DNA of 64,000 bases from Candidatus Aminicenantales bacterium (GTDB lineage Bacteria; Acidobacteriota; Aminicenantia; Aminicenantales; Saccharicenantaceae). The translations under genes were made by a program, and so were the position numbers. This document shows, piece after piece, positions 1 to 7,208 of the stretch. The notes under the pieces were generated by a model, which did no database searches, had not been told where the DNA came from, and worked only from the letters and a program-made list of their open reading frames with translations. Positions within the stretch are counted from its first letter, which is position 1. The number at the start of each line of letters is the position of its first letter. The DNA lies in contig JBEKXF010000006.1 of the NCBI GenBank assembly GCA_049512315.1, positions 1-64,000 on the forward strand, written 5' to 3'.

Positions 1-53
1 GCCTCCCGGAGCAGGGTGATGATCTGCTCCGGATTAAACCGTTTCCTGGCCAT
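1..53 (-). CDS. IS3-family transposase OrfA, N-terminal fragment (partial at window edge)
   Basis: Manual translation MARKRFNPEQIITLLREA matches the typical IS3 OrfA HTH start; ATG at 53. Confidence 0.8.
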   Translation of the reverse strand, partial: MARKRFNPEQIITLLRE

Positions 54-119
54 GTCCACCTCCCTCGATCCAGCAGAATCTTAGCACACGGGCTGGATCC
101 CTTTGAGGGGGGCAGGTCA
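1..119 (-). mobile_element. Left end of an IS3-family (IS407-group-like) insertion sequence, continuing beyond the window start
   Basis: Minus strand from 119 reads TGACCTGCCCCCCTCAAAGGGATCCAG, an IS407-type terminal IR. It is followed by a GGAGG RBS and an ORF starting MARKRFNPEQIITLLREA. Confidence 0.8.
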
Positions 120-309
120 CTAATGACTCAAATGTTAGCTCTCTATGGATAATGAAAATGGTCCACCTTCCCTCTTTGTGCCAGAACCCTAGGGCAACGT
201 CGTGATGTCCCGAAAGAATATGATCTTTGGCTATGTCTTCGACTTGGACTGCGATTTTTCCCCATCCCAGGATTTCCGCACAATCCTTGCAAAAAGCAAC
301 CCAGACCAT
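120..309 (-). pseudogene. Small CxxC/His-containing hypothetical protein, 3' end interrupted by the IS3 element
   Basis: AGGAGG RBS precedes MVWVAFCKDC...HILSGHH. The reading frame runs into the IS end at 119 (the ORF-track call 34..309 reads through it). Confidence 0.45.
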
Positions 310-717
310 TTTTTATCCTCCTGCTCCCTTATAAACCCGCCGGTCAGCCTATGGCGCATTTTCAATAAATAGGACTTTTCTTGATTTGGCCATCGACCTT
401 CATTTCCCCTATCGAGCAATCCCTCCACCTAGCTATCAGGGCCTGTCCCAATCAGGGGGAAACGCGGATTTCAGCCCCCGTCAGCCTTACTGACCTCCTT
501 CCCACATAATAGGTCCCGGCATTAAGTGAATAAGGATATCAGGAACGGGTCCAGCGCCCCGGAGGGCTTCAGGGAGGCCTATGACGTCACGGACCGGCCG
601 TAGAAGGCCTATTCTTGCCGCTCAGATGCACCTGGGGGGCTTTCTGCGGCGAAACGTAGTGGGGTCCGTATGGCGCGGGCAGGGGTAGGACGATGTGTTA
701 TTGAAGGAGGCTGTGGG

Positions 718-765
718 GAGGTTCTGCGAGCGAGGGCCCCTTTGGGAAAACTGCGGGTGGACTAT
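718..765. repeat. Degenerate copy 0 of conserved cassette element B
   Basis: GAGGTTCT..GAGGGCCCCTTTGGGAAAACTG..GGTGGACTAT aligns with the copies at 2552, 3668 and 6514. Confidence 0.55.
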
Positions 766-806
766 CTGTTCACGAAACTCTGATCAGTGCAGCTAATCCG
801 GCGGGG

Positions 807-1751
807 CTATCGCGCTCTGGGTGTAATGCCGACACTGCTGAGAAAGATTCGCACCGCCTCAAAGGCCCTCAACTCCTGATCCGCGGAAAAGTCTCCATGA
901 CCTCCGCCCGGGACTGTGACCAACTTATTGCGCACCCCAGCTTTAGTTAGCGCTTCGTGTAGCCGGACGGCGTGGGAGTACGGCACGATGTGATCGGCGT
1001 CGCCGTGAATTGTGAGAATGGGAGGCAAGCCCGCACGGACATAGTTGAGAGGCGATAAACGCCGCGCCAGCTCTTCGCGATTCGCCAAGCTGCCCAACCA
1101 AGCGACGGCGTACGAGCGCGTGTTCGGCGCGCCTTGCAGCATGTCGGCCACATCGGTTATGCCGAACCAGTTGATGACGGCGGCAACTTTGGGCCGCGCA
1201 TCGGTCCACGGCCCGTTCCAGTTCTCATCGTCTTCGTAAGCGCACCGGTTCTCGAAACCGGCCGACGGGGGGATCATAGAGGTCGTCAGGGCCAGGTGTC
1301 CTCCGGCCGAGCCGCCCGTCACGACCAATTTGTTCAGGTCGAAGTTGTATTTCTTGGCATTCCGTCCGATCCAGTGCAACGCGCATAGGCAGTCCTCGAC
1401 CGCGGCCGGTGCGAGCGATGTCTTGCCCAGACGATATTCCACGTTCACCACAGCGAAGCCCATCGCGAGATAAGGCAATGCACTGAGAGCCGCTTCTTCT
1501 TTTGTACCGGCGACCCAGCCACCCCCGTGAATCAGCATGACGACGGGAACCGGAGACTTGGCCTGGCTTGGGCGATACACATCGAGCTTCGCTTCGTAAC
1601 CGTTGGCGACCAAGTAGGTGATGTTGGGAGCGACCTCATAGTCATGCTCGATGAGTACAGCTGCCTTTTCAGCCTCAGACAGCTGGGCCCACATGGTCGA
1701 AGTCAAGGTTAACAAGGCGACAATCACCACCATGCAACGTAGTGTGCGCAT
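807..1751 (-). CDS. Exported alpha/beta hydrolase (HSL-like / BD-FAE esterase)
   Basis: HGGGW oxyanion motif, GGSAGG nucleophile elbow, HGDAD and GGGHG motifs. Signal peptide present; GGAGGA RBS before ATG 1751. Confidence 0.88.
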   Translation of the reverse strand: MRTLRCMVVIVALLTLTSTMWAQLSEAEKAAVLIEHDYEVAPNITYLVANGYEAKLDVYRPSQAKSPVPVVMLIHGGGWVAGTKEEAALSALPYLAMGFAVVNVEYRLGKTSLAPAAVEDCLCALHWIGRNAKKYNFDLNKLVVTGGSAGGHLALTTSMIPPSAGFENRCAYEDDENWNGPWTDARPKVAAVINWFGITDVADMLQGAPNTRSYAVAWLGSLANREELARRLSPLNYVRAGLPPILTIHGDADHIVPYSHAVRLHEALTKAGVRNKLVTVPGGGHGDFSADQELRAFEAVRIFLSSVGITPRAR

Positions 1752-1950
1752 CAAATCCTCCGGTTTTAGGTATAGGAATTTCATTTTTTGTGCCGTGCGC
1801 CTCCGCCGGCCATAAGGCTTGGACTAACGGCCCCCCACACGAAAGGACGATATCGCCGGCCTCGCGGCGATGTCAATGACATAAAGAACACCGCATCACG
1901 CCCATGTGGCAAAATCGTTCAGTCGCCGGGATGCTTGACGCAGACTGGGA

Positions 1951-2412
1951 CTATTTCTGTGCTATCGTCGAGGCATGAGTCGCCACGCACTGCCAAAGGC
2001 CGGCCTTTTTAATCCAAGTGTCAGTCCACCTTTCTTGGCCACTGACATCCTTGCCCTTATCCGTTCCTTTGAGCGTGTTGCGGCCAGTCACCACCGCCGC
2101 ATCTCCATAGACCCGTGCCTTCATGTCGTCGGCCACCATGGACGATATCACCAGCTCGCCGGACTTCAGGGACGCCAGGTCCTGGGCCTTAGTCGTGACG
2201 GACCCATCGATGTCCGTTATTACCCAGTCATCCGCCAAAATCCGGTTAAGGAAAGCCCAATCGGCTTTGACAAGAGCATTCGTCCACTCTTGCTCAAGTT
2301 TCAGCAGTTCCTGCTCCGCACTCCCGCTTTTTGGCTGGCCCTGCGTCTGGGCGATGATGGCGACTGCCAAGATCAAGACAACCACGCAGACTGCAATAGC
2401 AATGCGTTTCAT
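1951..2412 (-). CDS. Exported NTF2/SnoaL-like (DUF4440) protein
   Basis: Signal peptide and motifs LEQEW..A....D...L..ILADD, RVYGDAAVVTG and TDTWIK..G.WQCVA.H; AGGAGG RBS. Confidence 0.85.
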   Translation of the reverse strand: MKRIAIAVCVVVLILAVAIIAQTQGQPKSGSAEQELLKLEQEWTNALVKADWAFLNRILADDWVITDIDGSVTTKAQDLASLKSGELVISSMVADDMKARVYGDAAVVTGRNTLKGTDKGKDVSGQERWTDTWIKKAGLWQCVATHASTIAQK

Positions 2413-2511
2413 AGAACCCCTCCTTTAAAGTGATTCAGAGACACGGGGACGGCAAAGATGGATTTTGCGTGAAGGCTGACCTTCGACTTCCCCTTATCCC
2501 TTGCTGATTGC

Positions 2512-2540
2512 CTTATAACACCACACAGATGCGAAGTCAA
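2512..2540 (-). promoter_or_regulatory. Sigma70-type promoter for the DUF4440 gene
   Basis: TTGACT-17 bp-TATAAG with a TG extension, abutting repeat B copy 1. Confidence 0.6.
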
Positions 2541-2551
2541 CCGGGGCTGAG

Positions 2552-2638
2552 GGCAGAGACGAGGTTCTTTTCGGGGGGGGCCTTTAGGAAAGAATATGGT
2601 GGATAGTTTTAGAGATTACAGTATACCCGTCAGCGCAC
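2552..2638. repeat. Conserved cassette element B, copy 1
   Basis: GGCAGAGACGAGGTTCTT..GGGCCTTTAGGAAAGAATATGGTGGATAGTTTTAGAGATTAC..CCGTCAGCGCAC; homologous to 3668 and 6514. Confidence 0.9.
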
Positions 2639-2693
2639 CTAAGCACGCAAGCCCCATCCCCCCTCGCCCCCGGCCCCCTCGAAGGCCCACGGA

Positions 2694-2791
2694 CCGCGTC
2701 ACCCCCGCGTCACCTGTACGTCACCAAGGGTGCCTAAAATTGCCTAATCCTGCCTACTCGTGCTCAAAGGGACGCGTCGATCTATATGGGG
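2694..2791. repeat. att-arm-like element A, copy 1 (3x CGTCACC, 11-bp period; 4x TGCCTA-like, 10-bp period)
   Basis: Near-identical to 6649-6747 and lies next to a tRNA 3' fragment. Confidence 0.88.
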
Positions 2792-2797
2792 AAAACA

Positions 2798-2821
2798 GAG
2801 CGCGCCTGAGAGGATTCGAAC
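2798..2821 (-). repeat. tRNA-Arg-like 3' end fragment (att core-like direct repeat)
   Basis: Minus strand GTTCGAATCCTCTCAGGCGCGCTC; 11 bp (2798-2808) are identical to 6962-6972 at the tRNA-Arg 3' end. Confidence 0.75.
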
Positions 2822-2854
2822 TTCCTGAACCAAATCTCTTTCGGAAACGGCCGG

Positions 2855-3574
2855 CTATTTGGCTTTTTCCCAGATGATGTTCTTAACAGGCACGATCTCG
2901 TATTTGCAGGGCCTGGTGGACTTATCGAATTCGTTGCGAAAATTCTTTCCTATGGCATCGCAAGCACCGGTCACCAGATCGACGAACTCTTTTATCAATA
3001 TATATGTTCCCTTTTTAGCAGAAGATTCGTCCGCACGCCCGGGAAGTCCCTCATAGACATATACTTTCCCTCCCCGGAACTGGAATTCCTCGATTTTATC
3101 GGTCACATCCACTCTGCGATATCCCCATTCCCTCTCGTCGAGCCTGATCATCTCCGCGTTGCTGATCAAGTATAAAATGGCATTAATCCTGCCTTTCTTT
3201 TTTGGATGGATATTCAGTTCCGCAGTCCCGTTGAAAGGAACGCGTTCATTGCCACGTAAAAAGAAGGCCTCGGTCCTTTTGATGTCCGCCGAATTCGCTC
3301 GAGGATCATTGAATGGACGAACGCATATCCACTCTCTCTCATAACCCGTCAGATGGATCTGATTGATCGGACCCTGGTATTTATGCCCGAGCGTCTGTTC
3401 CATGCTCGGCAAAGAGATCAGGGAGCCGTAAGCGATCATCCCCGCCGAACCTTCCGGAATTTCCATGGTGCTTTTTCTTTTCACTCCAAAACTGGATGTG
3501 GAAGATAAAAAAAGAATCAGAACGGAAAGTGATATGCCTAAAAGTGACACGGTTAAAGAATCACTTTTCTTCAT
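2855..3574 (-). CDS. Exported hypothetical protein, gamma-glutamylcyclotransferase/ChaC-like fold
   Basis: Hydrophobic N-terminus; IAYGSL and LDEREWGYRRV motifs resemble GGCT-like proteins. Start is uncertain (3574 or 3613). Confidence 0.6.
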   Translation of the reverse strand: MKKSDSLTVSLLGISLSVLILFLSSTSSFGVKRKSTMEIPEGSAGMIAYGSLISLPSMEQTLGHKYQGPINQIHLTGYEREWICVRPFNDPRANSADIKRTEAFFLRGNERVPFNGTAELNIHPKKKGRINAILYLISNAEMIRLDEREWGYRRVDVTDKIEEFQFRGGKVYVYEGLPGRADESSAKKGTYILIKEFVDLVTGACDAIGKNFRNEFDKSTRPCKYEIVPVKNIIWEKAK

Positions 3575-3667
3575 GGAATCGCCCGCTTCGGGCTCGAAAC
3601 CGATGCCTCCCATCACGGAATGATGATATCCCCGGCCGCGGGCCCTAGTCAACATGACTCTCAGCGA

Positions 3668-3782
3668 CAGAGGCGAGGTTCTTCTCAGAGGAGCCCTTTA
3701 GGAAAAACTATTGTGGATATTTCTGGAGATCACGATTGACCCGTTAGCGCACGAACGAGGCATTGGTCCCATACCCCCCCGG
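3668..3782. repeat. Conserved cassette element B, copy 2
   Basis: CAGAGGCGAGGTTCTTCTCAGAGGAGCCCTTTAGGAAAAACTATTGTGGATATTTCTGGAGATCACGATTGACCCGTTAGCGCACGAAC..CCATACCCCCCCGG; aligns closely with 6514-6629. Confidence 0.9.
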
Positions 3783-3794
3783 TGGGCTGTGGAA

Positions 3795-3837
3795 CGTGGC
3801 CGGAGGGATTTGAACCTCCGACCTTTGGATTTGGAGG
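3795..3837 (-). pseudogene. Degenerate tRNA 3' half (identity uncertain; Arg/Trp-like)
   Basis: Minus strand CCTCCAAATCCAAAGGTCGGAGGTTCAAATCCCTCCGGCCACG has a T-loop GGTTCAAATCC and a 3' acceptor strand; no 5' half. Confidence 0.65.
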
Positions 3838-3927
3838 ATAGTCCATATACCCTGGCCCTTTTCGGTGAGTCGATTTAGCCATCACAGCAAACAGGGTCAG
3901 AGTTACATATCTTCATCCTGGCAATCT

Positions 3928-6441
3928 TCACTCCAAGCCCATCTTTTTTATAATTTCGCGAAACCGGGGCATCGTGCGCAGGCTGTCGACCTTGGGCTCC
4001 ACCTTGATAAAAACGAGGGCCCGAGACCGCTCCTCATAGGCTTTTTCAAGCCAATCGAGGGCGAGGTCCTGCTTCCCCAAGCTGGCATAGACTTCGGCTA
4101 TATCGTAGGCCGAGACATATTTCCTTTTCGACAGGTCGATCAATTGATTCAGCAGATTCTGCGCTTCAACGATTTGGCCGGACACCGCATAGGCATCGGC
4201 CAGCCCTGCCACCGTATAGGCACTTCCTTTGGATAGATTCATGGCCTTTTGAAATTCGAGGATCGCATCCGGAAAGCTTCCTTTGAACTGGTAGGCCTGG
4301 CCAAGCCAATAATGGGCCGGAACAAAATTCGGGTCGATCTCCAGCGCTTTTTTGATCTGTTCAATCGCTTGATCATACCTGTGGGCGAAGTAATCCATCC
4401 AACCGATCGTGGTGTTGATAATCATCGAGAGCGGGTCCAAATGGCTGGCCTCTTTCTTTTCTGCTATGGCTTCATCCAGCCGGCCCATGGCCGCGAGATA
4501 TTCTGCATACCAATGGGGAGTTGTCGGGTAAGAGGCATTGAGTTGCAGGGAGAGCCGAAATTCCCTTTCGGCGCCAGGCCAGTCCCAATCATAATACAAT
4601 TTTGTATAGGCCAATGACGTGTGTGCTTCCGCGAGTAATTGATCAATCTCCAGAGCTTTTAGGGCTGCTGCCTTGGCCTTGGGAAATGCCTCTTTGGGAG
4701 GTTGGACACCGTAGAATCCAAAGGCATTGTAACAATCAGCCAGTCCCGCATAGGCGGCCGCATAAGAGGGATCTTTTTCGATCGCCTGCTGGAAGCTCTC
4801 AATGCTTTTCTTCACTTCCTCTTCCGTCCGTTTGTTCCAGTAGAAACGTCCCTTGAGATAGAAATCATAGGCTTCAGGATTTTCTGTATAGCGCTTGATA
4901 ATCTGGACCTCTTTTTCCCCCAGTAGCTTGATCTTCAGAGCTTTGACAATTTCTTGGGCAATTTCATCCTGGATGGTAAATAGATCGGTCAGTTTCCTGT
5001 TATAAATAGCTGACCAGATCTGGCTGCCGTTCTTGACGTCGCTGAGTCGCGGGCTTATGCGGAGATTGTCGCCAATCACAAGGACGCTGCCTTCGAGCAC
5101 AGTTTCGACATTCAATTTCTGGCCAATGTCGCTGAGATTGTATTCTTTGCCCTTAAACGAAAACGCGGAGGCCCTGGCTGGAACCCAAAGACCTTCGATA
5201 TTATTGAGGGCGTTGATCAGCGTCTCCGGGATTCCTTCGCATAAATATTCATGCCCTTTCTCTGGGCTTAAATCCATAAATGGCAAGACGGCAATCGAGT
5301 GCAAGCCGGGAGGTCTGAAGAGGGCCCCGCGACGGGGAAGAAGTTGCCAAACAATGACCCCGGCAATGACGACAAGGAGAAAAATCAAAGCCGGCGCGAT
5401 GAGCTTCTTGAACCTGAATGTGACCGTGATCTCCTTAGAGGTGAGAGGCCGTCTCTTAGCCAGGACCCTCTCTGATGTGGGCATCCCTTTTTCGATTTTT
5501 ATCAATTCTGTCAGCACATCCTCGGCCCCGGGAAATCTTTTCTCCTTATCTTTTTCCAGACATTTCATGATCACTCGGCTTAAGTCCGGGGGCATCTGGG
5601 CATTGAATTCCATGGGGTCCCGGGGCTTTTCAGCCTTGTGTTTCATGGCGATGCTGAGCGGGGTGTCTCCTTCAAAAGGGATGCGTCCGGTCACCATCTC
5701 ATAAAGAATCACTCCCAACGAGTAAATGTCCGACCGCTTATCGACATCCTTCGCTTCCGCCTGCTCGGGCGACATGTATTCGGGCGTTCCAATCAGCACC
5801 CCGGCGCCCGTGATGCCTCTCCCCGAGAGTGAACGGGCGATTCCGAAGTCCATGATCTTGGCATCTCCGTCCTTGTCAATCATGATATTGCCGGGCTTCA
5901 GATCTCTATGAATAACCCCCAGCCTGTGTGCTTCCTCCAATCCCTCACACACTTGCTTGGCAATGGATATTGCAGTTCCTGTGCTGAGCTGTTTTGACCT
6001 ATGGATGAAGCTCCTCAGATCCTCTCCCGGCACGAACTCCATGGTGATGAAAGTCGAGCCCTCGGCCTTGCCCAGGTCGAACATCCGGCAGACATTCCTG
6101 TGGCTAATCCTGCGGGCGAGTTTCAATTCATTCGAGAACCGCTCGACCGTTTCCTTATCCAGGGTGATCTCGGGCCGAAGGAGCTTGAGGGCGACGTTCT
6201 CCTTGATGTCTATGTCGTGGACCTTGTAAACCTTGCCCATGCCACCGTGGCCCAGCTCTTCAATCACCTGGTAGCGGCCGGCGAAGGTGTAGCCCGTAGT
6301 TAGCTCGCGGACCGGTGTTTGGATGGTATCCGTTACGACAGGAGGATGGTTTTGGGGCGGAGGGAGCTGCGTGCCACACCCCCCGCAGAATCGTTGGGTC
6401 TCGGGATTGTCGGAATGGCAGGTCGGACATTTGTTGGCCAA
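3928..6441 (-). CDS. Hanks-type Ser/Thr protein kinase with N-terminal zinc ribbon, TM helix, TolB-N-like domain and TPR repeats
   Basis: CPTC..CGGC; LGHGGMGKVY, HRDLKPGN, DFG and GTPEYMSPE; TM segment; SIAVLPF.D motif; TPR C-terminus. TTG start with AAGGGG RBS. Confidence 0.93.
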   Translation of the reverse strand: MANKCPTCHSDNPETQRFCGGCGTQLPPPQNHPPVVTDTIQTPVRELTTGYTFAGRYQVIEELGHGGMGKVYKVHDIDIKENVALKLLRPEITLDKETVERFSNELKLARRISHRNVCRMFDLGKAEGSTFITMEFVPGEDLRSFIHRSKQLSTGTAISIAKQVCEGLEEAHRLGVIHRDLKPGNIMIDKDGDAKIMDFGIARSLSGRGITGAGVLIGTPEYMSPEQAEAKDVDKRSDIYSLGVILYEMVTGRIPFEGDTPLSIAMKHKAEKPRDPMEFNAQMPPDLSRVIMKCLEKDKEKRFPGAEDVLTELIKIEKGMPTSERVLAKRRPLTSKEITVTFRFKKLIAPALIFLLVVIAGVIVWQLLPRRGALFRPPGLHSIAVLPFMDLSPEKGHEYLCEGIPETLINALNNIEGLWVPARASAFSFKGKEYNLSDIGQKLNVETVLEGSVLVIGDNLRISPRLSDVKNGSQIWSAIYNRKLTDLFTIQDEIAQEIVKALKIKLLGEKEVQIIKRYTENPEAYDFYLKGRFYWNKRTEEEVKKSIESFQQAIEKDPSYAAAYAGLADCYNAFGFYGVQPPKEAFPKAKAAALKALEIDQLLAEAHTSLAYTKLYYDWDWPGAEREFRLSLQLNASYPTTPHWYAEYLAAMGRLDEAIAEKKEASHLDPLSMIINTTIGWMDYFAHRYDQAIEQIKKALEIDPNFVPAHYWLGQAYQFKGSFPDAILEFQKAMNLSKGSAYTVAGLADAYAVSGQIVEAQNLLNQLIDLSKRKYVSAYDIAEVYASLGKQDLALDWLEKAYEERSRALVFIKVEPKVDSLRTMPRFREIIKKMGLE

Positions 6442-6513
6442 GCGAGTTCCCCTTCTCTAGCTTGGTCTCAGATTAACAGAGGGATGTGCGGGAAGTCAAA
6501 CGTGGATTCGGGG

Positions 6514-6629
6514 GGCAGAGACGAGGTTCTTCTCTGAGGGCCCTTTAGTGAAAACTATGGTGGATATTTTTAGAGATCACAATTGATCCGTAAGCGCACG
6601 ATCGGGGTATTGGTTCCATACCCCCCCGG
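6514..6629. repeat. Conserved cassette element B, copy 3
   Basis: Aligns with 2552-2638 and 3668-3782; ends in a GGGGTAT..ATACCCC palindrome. Confidence 0.9.
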
Positions 6630-6648
6630 CGGCCCTAGCGCCTTCAGG

Positions 6649-6747
6649 CCGCGTCACCCCCGCGTCACCTGTGCGTCACCAAATGTGCCTAAAATTGCCT
6701 AATCCTGCCTACTCGTGCCTAAAGGGAATTGCCGGTTTATATGGGGA
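6649..6747. repeat. att-arm-like element A, copy 2
   Basis: GCGTCACC x3 (11-bp period) and TGCCTA x4 (10-bp period); near-identical to 2694-2791. Confidence 0.88.
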
Positions 6748-6751
6748 CAGG

Positions 6752-6807
6752 TGGCGGGGCCGACGAGACTCGAACTCGCGACCTCCGGCGTGACAGGCCG
6801 GCGTTCT
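6752..6807 (-). pseudogene. 5'-truncated tRNA-Asp(GTC)
   Basis: Minus strand AGAACGCCGGCCTGTCACGCCGGAGGTCGCGAGTTCGAGTCTCGTCGGCCCCGCCA has the anticodon arm, T arm and CCA, but lacks the 5' acceptor strand and D-arm start. Confidence 0.85.
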
Positions 6808-6835
6808 TCCTAGCCCTTCAACCCGGAAAGCCCAC

Positions 6836-6915
6836 AGTACCAAATGTGTGCTCAAATGTGTGCTCAACGGATGCCTAAAACGGTGTAAAGCTGTACAAAA
6901 TTGAGACAAATTTAG
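6836..6915. repeat. Arm-like tandem repeats downstream of tRNA-Arg
   Basis: CAAATGTGTGCT x2 (12-bp period) followed by roughly 10-bp periodic A-tract units; same position relative to a tRNA 3' end as element A. Confidence 0.6.
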
Positions 6916-6964
6916 GGTGCCGGGGATGATGACTAAATAGCAGATTTCTCGGGGAATATGGGAG

Positions 6965-7037
6965 CGCGCCTGGGGTGAATCGAACACCCGACCCGCTGCT
7001 TAGAAGGCAGCTGCTCTATCCCCTGAGCTACAGGCGC
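6965..7037 (-). tRNA. tRNA-Arg(TCT)
   Basis: GCGCCTG acceptor stem, TAGCTCAG D-arm start, anticodon arm GCTGC-CTTCTAA-GCAGC, T arm GGGTG-TTCGATT-CACCC. Confidence 0.95.
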
Positions 7038-7062
7038 GTCATGGATGATCAAGGCCGGGGCC

Positions 7063-7103
7063 GCGAAAGAGCGCCCGGCCGTTCCGGCCGGGCGCTCTTT
7101 CGC
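7063..7103. repeat. Perfect 19-bp-stem hairpin between tRNA-Pro and tRNA-Arg
   Basis: GCGAAAGAGCGCCCGGCCG-TTC-CGGCCGGGCGCTCTTTCGC. Confidence 0.8.
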
Positions 7104-7133
7104 AGGGCCGGTCGCTTTGCCGCGGGAAGCCAA

Positions 7134-7208
7134 TCGGGGAGAGCGGATTTGAACCGCCGACCTCCTGCTCCCAAGGCAGGCGCGCTAGCCAGGCTGCGCC
7201 ACTCCCCG
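7134..7208 (-). tRNA. tRNA-Pro(TGG)
   Basis: CGGGGAG acceptor stem, anticodon arm CCTGC-CTTGGGA-GCAGG, T loop GGTTCAAATCC. Confidence 0.95.

Follow-up and report, generated by a model that had tools for sequence, protein, structure and literature searches.

The first 7 kb of the window (the 64,000 nucleotides at the start of contig C6 of a Candidatus Aminicenantales bacterium, genome G000, assembled as 3.55 Mb in 77 contigs) carry a row of small genes that begins at an intact tRNA-Arg(tct) gene and is interspersed with tRNA 3' fragments and two families of repeated non-coding elements, termed A and B. This row is probably the tRNA-proximal part of an accretion island of decayed phage satellites and IMEs (mobilizable elements of the integrative kind), comparable to cis-mobilizable elements (CIMEs), with attachment-site (att) heads and cargo genes that have been reshuffled between islands. 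The GC content of positions 1-7000 is 48-61%, and that of the core genes beyond is 61-69%. The repeats of A and of a further arm, ARM1, are what we take, under a lambda-type att model, to be arm-type sites and sites for recombination directionality factor (RDF) and integration host factor (IHF). The features, in the order in which the minus strand is read from the tRNA gene, are as follows.

6964..7037, minus strand: intact tRNA-Arg(tct) gene, the island anchor (attL).
6840..6963, minus strand: ARM1, the predicted P'-type (inner) arm for a family of integrases with tRNA-Arg(tct) and tRNA-Thr(cgt) as targets.
6808..6830, minus strand: scar resembling the last codons of long receptor-kinase genes, identical over 14 nt to the tail of a kinase gene on contig C14.
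6752..6807, minus strand: tRNA-Asp(gtc) 3' fragment (nt 22-77, anticodon stem-loop included), with no outer arm in front.
6650..6750, minus strand: element A copy 1, a predicted integrase arm with four phased TTAGGCA-like sites and three GGTGACG repeats.
6536..6631 (core; homology to about 6512), minus strand: element B copy 1, a conserved non-coding cis site and candidate packaging signal.
6442..6505, minus strand: kinase-family promoter-leader, with TTGACT at 6499-6494 and a weak -10 box at 6475-6470, read by eye.
3928..6441, minus strand: receptor-type Ser/Thr kinase gene.
3795..3837, minus strand: degenerate, armless tRNA-Arg(ccg/tcg)-type 3' fragment.
3690..3783 (homology to about 3664), minus strand: element B copy 2.
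3623..3652, minus strand: sigma70-like promoter TTGACT-18-TATCAT from a consensus scan, a second reused leader that recurs elsewhere.
2855..3574, minus strand: gene for an exported, tentatively GGCT/ChaC-like protein.
2798..2825, minus strand: short 3' fragment of a tRNA-Arg, comprising just the T arm and acceptor.
2694..2797, minus strand: element A copy 2.
2575..2668, minus strand: element B copy 3.
2413..2545, minus strand: third reused promoter-leader, TTGACT-17-TATAAG by eye, typical of DUF4440 genes.
1951..2412, minus strand: gene for an exported DUF4440 protein.
807..1784, minus strand: gene for an exported BD-FAE-type esterase, with its own promoter at 1876-1847.
508..791, minus strand: degenerate 3' part of B (733-791) and a conserved non-coding block.
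1..119, minus strand: left end of an IS3-type insertion sequence (IS), which breaks the contig; family named by eye from the start of orfA.
7134-7208: tRNA-Pro(tgg), lying with mutL upstream of tRNA-Arg(tct).

A preliminary description of this DNA had named the tRNA-Arg anchor, the Asp fragment and the fragment at 3795-3837, and all three were confirmed. The Asp fragment has 100% identity to nt 22-77 of the host tRNA-Asp gene on contig C30; an ARAGORN call of tRNA-Asp at 6752-6825 is spurious, being just the 3' 56 nt of that real gene. The fragment at 3795-3837 matches nt 33-71 of tRNA-Arg(ccg) at 87%, and the third, previously placed at 2798-2821, was found at 2798-2825 with 24 of 26 positions identical to nt 50-75 of the same tRNA. 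Adjacent fragments stem from different tRNAs, and one has no anticodon core. The repeats had likewise been counted correctly, with A present twice (126 nt, 82% identity between the copies) and B three times (6536-6631, 3690-3783 and 2575-2668; E 1e-20 to 1e-27 against a sequence-only model built from 16 copies, these three among them). The degenerate B at 733-791 scores E=0.08 alone and is followed by a block of about 240 bp that also trails B on contigs C42 and C33; this non-coding block (508-750 in the window) has five copies in the genome, on C32 and C45 as well. Promoter-like sites precede each cargo gene by consensus scan and by eye, and the kinase promoter-leader, found ahead of many kinase paralogues, was not listed at 6442-6505 by the scan. 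The array continues past the contig end, C6 being broken inside the IS3-type element at 1-119.

In agreement with the earlier statement that the window has no integrase, neither a tyrosine recombinase (13 matches genome-wide) nor a large serine recombinase (two matches) was found on contig C6; phage-satellite genes for integrase, replication and packaging hijack are absent from the window and present in the presumed parents. Window units consist of fragment, inner arm, B, promoter and gene, and none has an attL and attR of its own, positions 1-7100 holding inner arms only. Since the opposite arm is absent from the window, single units are not excisable through their own att pairs; they are eroded left ends within a larger arm-bounded segment, not free cassettes. 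The earlier proposal of mini-islands mobilised in trans is not supported for single units; mobilisation of this kind could apply to the larger segments bounded by Arg(tct) arms, which retain both ends.

A and ARM1 are predicted integrase arms of small tRNA-targeting integrative elements. Each has a spacer on the side of the tRNA core, next to it four sites that follow one another at intervals of roughly one turn of the helix, and lastly two or three direct repeats. In this genome iterated profiles found A 19 times, B 10 times and ARM1 six times. ARM1 has phased sites of about 10 bp followed by GAGCACA repeats, and in relatives it comes after intact Arg(tct) or Thr(cgt) genes. On the grounds of this position, and of a repeat that it has in common with the outer arm described below, ARM1 would be the inner arm of the Arg(tct)/Thr(cgt) integrase family. 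The 19 profile matches of A lie beside tRNAs or fragments, including intact tRNA-Leu, His, Asp and Glu genes; A also lies inverted ahead of many Arg(ccg) fragments, and in one relative (G151) it flanks a single fragment on both sides.

An intact integrase on contig C36 encodes A's TGTGAC repeats in its last codons, just before a tRNA-His fragment, and a matching peptide motif lies within the last 45 residues of 63 of the 120 homologues listed for it; in the same family, 20 loci were read among 54 matches listed and four had a clear A match. Among these are integrase-bearing elements of 9 kb at tRNA-Arg in G121 and G122 (E 2e-15 and 4e-13) and, in G014, one of 6 kb that is complete and sits at tRNA-Asp (E=9e-4). 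A stands at the ends of all three, so it is shared by integrase-bearing elements. A likeness between A and the RP4 nic site was set aside, other members of the family being without it.

The island closes in relatives G003, G009, G012, G147 and G160 with an Arg(tct) fragment ahead of pilB. In G000 the far-end junction is on contig C4 (9424-9471), where a second exact fragment has arms on both sides (C4:2045-2297), and we infer that the window and this far end belong together. The outer Arg(tct) arm motif gave 37 matches in 22 of 246 genomes and none with a reversed control. The 30 arm loci that were read comprise 25 outer and five inner arms; from the outer arm to the anticodon stem (core) the distance is 60 nt in 23 of 25 and 59 nt in the other two. 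In one frame the outer arm reads as an integrase-like C-terminus (the last ~25 codons) that stops just before the fragment, a geometry also present in 7 of 11 intact integrases, and the DNA 12-62 nt upstream of the arm falls into 20 unrelated groups among the 25 loci. The simplest reading would be that the integrase was lost repeatedly up to the arm sites, which were retained. BLASTP found no match to tyrosine integrases, terminases or primases in any of the 30 arm loci, serine recombinases lying outside the reference used here and for the relatives' regions. Both attL and attR of Arg(tct)-arm segments are kept on one contig in G012, G160, G147, G166, G172, G173 and G181, and the two ends in G000 lie on separate contigs, C6 and C4; such segments could be mobilisable in trans by a passing integrase.

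The genes at tRNA-Arg(tct) differ in every relative mapped (G002, G003, G007, G009, G012, G018 and G038; G147, G160, G166, G168, G171, G172, G173, G181 and G209), and up to seven fragment-bounded units lie within 40 kb in G171. No tyrosine integrase, terminase or primase was found by BLASTP in the 16 larger regions at this tRNA, the unassembled gap of G000 being outside their scope. Autonomous elements occupy the same tRNA in G156 (serine recombinase and TerL) and G052 (tyrosine integrase, with other arms). ARM1 has an Asp fragment behind it at Arg(tct) in G000, G002, G009, G012, G017 and G160 and at Thr(cgt) in G006, G009 and G012, in at least three genera overall. Six genomes have one common spacer, resembling the last codons of long kinases, ahead of the Asp fragment; the DNA after it is A in G000, G002 and G012 (at Thr) and other DNA elsewhere. 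The nested Asp fragment is thereby a putative secondary landing site, filled in some lineages.

Fragments are not confined to this locus. With 45 intact tRNA and tmRNA genes as queries (five of 50 ARAGORN calls were left out as fragments or spurious; E<1e-3), 70 further matches were obtained, two of them real genes cut at contig ends, which leaves 68 fragments in the genome; 31 are of Arg(ccg) and 10 of Arg(cct) type, several are degenerate (79-90% identity), and the median spacing of those less than 15 kb apart is 1.8 kb (41 gaps). An Arg(ccg) pattern had 23 matches here, the most among the 87 family genomes (runner-up 10; 0 of 26 in genus g7). A rule by which each fragment is directly followed by a -35 box was rejected, TTGAC standing right after the fragment in 6 of 60 cases against 4.8%. 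Similar arrays were seen at tRNA-Thr(cgt) (L152-L153 in G014 C5, L151 in G178 C13 and L161 in G147), with an intact satellite beside kinase modules and Thr fragments every 1-4 kb.

All four cargo genes lie on the minus strand and encode an N-terminal hydrophobic segment or a central transmembrane segment, as the preliminary description had it, and its kinase, DUF4440 and esterase assignments were borne out by Pfam. The kinase (837 aa; Zn ribbon, kinase, transmembrane and TPR regions) is one of 36 kinase paralogues in the genome; the DUF4440 protein has 153 aa and the BD-FAE esterase 325 aa. For the GGCT-like gene there was no Pfam match, and the nearest ESM Atlas clusters, GGACT/ChaC at 0.95, give a lead only. 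At E<=1e-40 the esterase was not found in any of seven congeners, two of them less than 65% complete. The GGCT-like gene is patchily present in 17 of the 87 family genomes, and at the 12 loci read it stands behind an Arg fragment with B (G000), an Asp fragment with A (G014), an Arg fragment with a third arm (G006 and G024) or a Thr fragment with that third arm (G160), no head being seen at the remaining loci among these 12; the short Arg fragment that trails it in the window trails it in G014 too. The presence of the same gene behind four different att heads indicates that heads and cargo have been exchanged. Orphan 3' tails of long kinase genes trail unrelated genes at window 6808-6830 and on C4, C14, C26, C40, C55 and C73, and the kinases have a common promoter and kinase domain with differing sensor C-termini; together these observations suggest that sensor C-termini may be replaced through recombination.

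Element B, non-coding and 95 bp long, occurs a short way in from the tRNA end of elements at five tRNAs. It comes after the arms of elements of Asp, Leu(caa), Thr(cgt), His and SeC type, at a depth of 100-350 bp and always pointing into the island, or stands free inside arrays. The B model matches 18 of the 87 family genomes and a B pattern matches 19 metagenome loci. In G165 a complete element of 11 kb, which carries TerS, helicase and integrase, has B at its end. In G163 B stands upstream of an integrase and in G008 near or upstream of TerS, and together with A it is on contig C50 of this genome with TerL and primase; the genome carries five TerL copies. In 6 of 16 independent viral clusters the invariant 5' motif of B lies in intergenic space between or next to genes for terminase or portal, whereas a permuted control gave 0 of 11 (p=0.054); a second variant gave 1 of 16 and the pooled test 7 of 32 against 0 of 11 (p=0.16), weak results for 15 nt in mixed orientation. 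Full-length B was not found in IMG/VR patterns, INPHARED or 76 viral integrase loci, in 20 regions around TerL genes (C50 excepted), in 20 integrase loci or in the two closest TerS relatives, G041 and G081, whose far ends may be missing. A role of B as packaging signal is weakly supported and is best taken as a lead. B was also considered as a structured RNA (five pairs, none compensatory, -1.0 kcal/mol over 16 sequences and no Rfam match) and rejected as such, and a likeness of part of it to a DnaA box was set aside, other family members being without it.

The accretion account that we favour would begin with small tRNA-targeting integrative elements of 6-15 kb, phage satellites or IME-like, as parents. 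Their integration at tRNA 3' ends would create the junctions of tRNA fragment and arm that are seen as sequence in relatives. Deletions halting at arm-binding sites would then remove the integrase, replication and packaging genes and leave att ends with self-promoted cargo, that is, CIMEs; the pattern is visible at the arm loci, and selection would presumably maintain it. Newcomers may have entered the tRNA or an internal fragment acting as secondary landing site, giving nested heads such as ARM1-Asp fragment-A-B. Cargo modules would finally be swapped between heads and islands by recombination in shared tRNA fragments, arms, B and promoter-leaders, an exchange whose outcome is apparent in the cargo loci. 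Turnover of exported and receptor-type genes would be the likely benefit.

Several observations weigh against this account. The link between C6 and C4 is drawn from the synteny of relatives, and the IS target duplications by which the two contigs might have been joined do not match, so other contigs may sit between them. Six of the 25 outer-arm loci have one common upstream sequence, and the arms might owe part of their conservation to decay being recent or to their stemming from few deletions; the integrase-free state of the arm loci is also bounded by the omission of serine recombinases noted above. Excised circles had been proposed as a check, and neither a circle nor an empty site was seen in the assembled contigs searched, which included those of four sequencing runs (X3-X6). 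X3 and X4 carry the same array; X5 has kinase pieces and a host closely related to this one, which differs at 44 positions over 2343 nt of the mutL region, and is without cover over 635-2219 and 2854-3487, and X6 has little array cover, gaps in cover that prove nothing. Joints such as 6499 to 3798 and 621 to 6752 were rejected as circles, being short and equal to junctions present at paralogous loci. A search by C-terminal peptide for an integrase of the ARM1 family found none in the 246 genomes or among 120 integrase homologues; its 32 strong matches in those genomes are all in frames of at most 209 aa. The ends may therefore be inert today. Were this so, the att pieces would no longer recombine site-specifically and would be neutral debris, offering at most homology for RecA-type exchange. 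We regard this as possible but on balance doubtful: the degenerate fragments, the missing ARM1 integrase and the lack of circles speak for it, but the 60-nt spacing is fixed, 20 different upstream junctions end at the arm, an exact fragment keeps both arms at C4:2045-2297, and the Asp fragment is identical to the host gene amid diverged neighbours.

Compatible with accretion, and adding a route of transfer, is the tentative idea that B is a pac- or cos-like site of the parent satellites, through which helper terminases package excised segments or, as in lateral transduction, the downstream island in situ. The constant inward orientation of B after the arms of five element types and its company of TerS, TerL, primase and, in part of the viral clusters, terminase or portal genes agree with this; the borderline motif statistics and the lack of full B in viral contigs and in nearly all terminase and integrase regions do not. 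More far-reaching, and unlikely in our view, would be a gene-shuttle domesticated by Aminicenantes from satellite ends: protein-free modules of tRNA landing site, arm, packaging site B and promoter, integrated in trans by satellite integrases, serving as hosts to one another by way of foreign tRNA fragments nested in them, and carried from cell to cell by satellite terminases, which would also package whole islands laterally. The preliminary description had offered an integron-like array or the eroded remains of serially integrated elements, and the second option fits well. None of the three findings that it had named as refuting its interpretation was made: A and B are not confined to a local duplication, the cargo at this tRNA is not invariant in relatives, and A is carried by integrase-bearing elements. 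The integron-like option, in which one trans-acting recombinase would cut out and reinsert the units one by one at tRNA fragments, in the manner of IntI at attC, draws on the co-oriented one- or two-gene modules, their short spacing, the swapping of cargo heads and several intact integrases elsewhere in the genome. It is quite improbable and already largely refuted for the window units: no integron integrase was found (best TIGR02249 score 75 bits against a cut-off of 265), B, A and ARM1 have no common single-strand hairpin (z-scores -3.2 to +3.1, only B1 beating shuffles), the modules have their own promoters and are not promoterless cassettes under Pc, TTGAC is not enriched after fragments, and neighbouring fragments come from different tRNAs, one lacking the anticodon core, with the outer arm absent from the window. 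A local tandem duplication of a regulatory region ahead of several genes is hardly credible. A and B do recur within 4 kb, but both are found genome-wide, at many tRNA loci, and in relatives, and B copy 1 resembles copies from other contigs and from another genus (84%) no less than it does the neighbouring copy (83%), with 68% to copy 3.

Accretion of decayed elements at tRNAs is a known principle, and the present case is an unusually mixed, lineage-wide form of it. In the CIME model of ICESt1 and ICESt3, integrative and conjugative elements (ICEs) lose integration and transfer genes and keep attL and attR, and tandem integration yields composite arrays (PMC5704250). Our island resembles these in being an integrase-less array with attL and attR of Arg(tct) segments kept and with related autonomous elements at the same sites (those with A in G014, G121 and G122, and those at this locus, with other arms, in G052 and G156); it differs in that the parents are satellite- or IME-like with terminase or primase genes rather than ICEs, the units measure 1-4 kb, a single island nests att heads from several tRNA families and mobilisation is hypothetical. 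Dehalococcoides has many tandem islands at the single gene ssrA, of which 15 lack an integration module and have been proposed as CIMEs; one expanded family dominates the cargo there (rdhA) as receptor kinases do here, but there a single target and a serine recombinase are used, as against numerous tRNAs as targets, integrases mostly of the tyrosine type and fragments of mixed origin here (PMC3146451). Tycheposon islands of Prochlorococcus, in the text consulted, bring together cargo elements and elements like phage-inducible chromosomal islands (PICIs) at tRNAs, with partial tRNAs and decayed elements kept and elements rarer than islands; the tRNAs there are island-specific, and retained arms, a B-like internal site and reused promoter-leaders are not described in that text (10.1101/2020.12.28.424599). 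As in Islander-type islands, a tRNA gene is paired with a displaced 3' fragment, and the fragment boundaries fit the anticodon-loop crossover class; Islander discards candidates without an integrase, so such arrays are invisible to it (PMC4383910).

The resemblance to integrons lies in a row of small co-oriented accessory genes with repeated sites between them; here, however, there is no IntI and there are no attC hairpins, and the cassettes have promoters and double-strand att arms. For PICIs and Staphylococcus aureus pathogenicity islands, it is reported that a satellite pac site beside attB can move downstream islands by lateral transduction and that cos or pac motifs mark phage-mobilised hitchers, whereas B is only a candidate pac site and the modules encode no terminase (PMC12829572, PMC11389934). 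Our literature search, with most subscription papers and supplements outside it, found no paper on such arrays in Aminicenantes. What is added here is the tie of A to a resident integrase family, the retention of arms, at a constant distance, in the form of integrase tails, the putative nesting of landing sites, the swapping of heads and a candidate packaging site in B. Likely parents and an anatomy can be given to lineage-wide integrase-less islands that integrase-based finders skip, with handles for experiment in integrase-arm pairs readable from the integrase's last codons, the putative nested secondary landing site and the candidate cis packaging signal; such islands may explain the expansion in Aminicenantes of receptor kinases and exported enzymes.

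Some minor observations concern B and the terminases. At three loci in three genomes (L072, L073 and L159) B runs straight into the last ~50 integrase codons, a shared deletion scar, and at L141, L178, L179, L183 and L185 the DNA after B holds a promoter-like site along with tRNA-Arg's 5' half, which is the other class of att junction. At L186-L217, a G-rich 15-mer stands in the interval from terS to terL in one family of 15 viral contigs and next to terminase or portal genes in others, possibly as a general motif of packaging regions. The five TerL genes of this genome (on C50, C5, C59, C2 and C43; L061, L062, L099, L063 and L100) are 85-91% identical and belong to a small element with a catalytic-domain-only tyrosine recombinase of 203 aa and no recognised capsid gene, relatives of which adjoin large serine recombinases at tRNA genes. 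Between tRNA-Pro and tRNA-Arg lies a 27-bp inverted repeat (89%; 7055-7111), and a 91-aa open reading frame at 34-309 is probably not a gene, its final third being the IS end. Widespread tRNA-flanked elements of 8-12 kb with integrase, helicase and TerL (L104-L115 and L152; TerL in 45 of 246 genomes), some with a tape-measure-like gene, appear to be undescribed satellites or small prophages.

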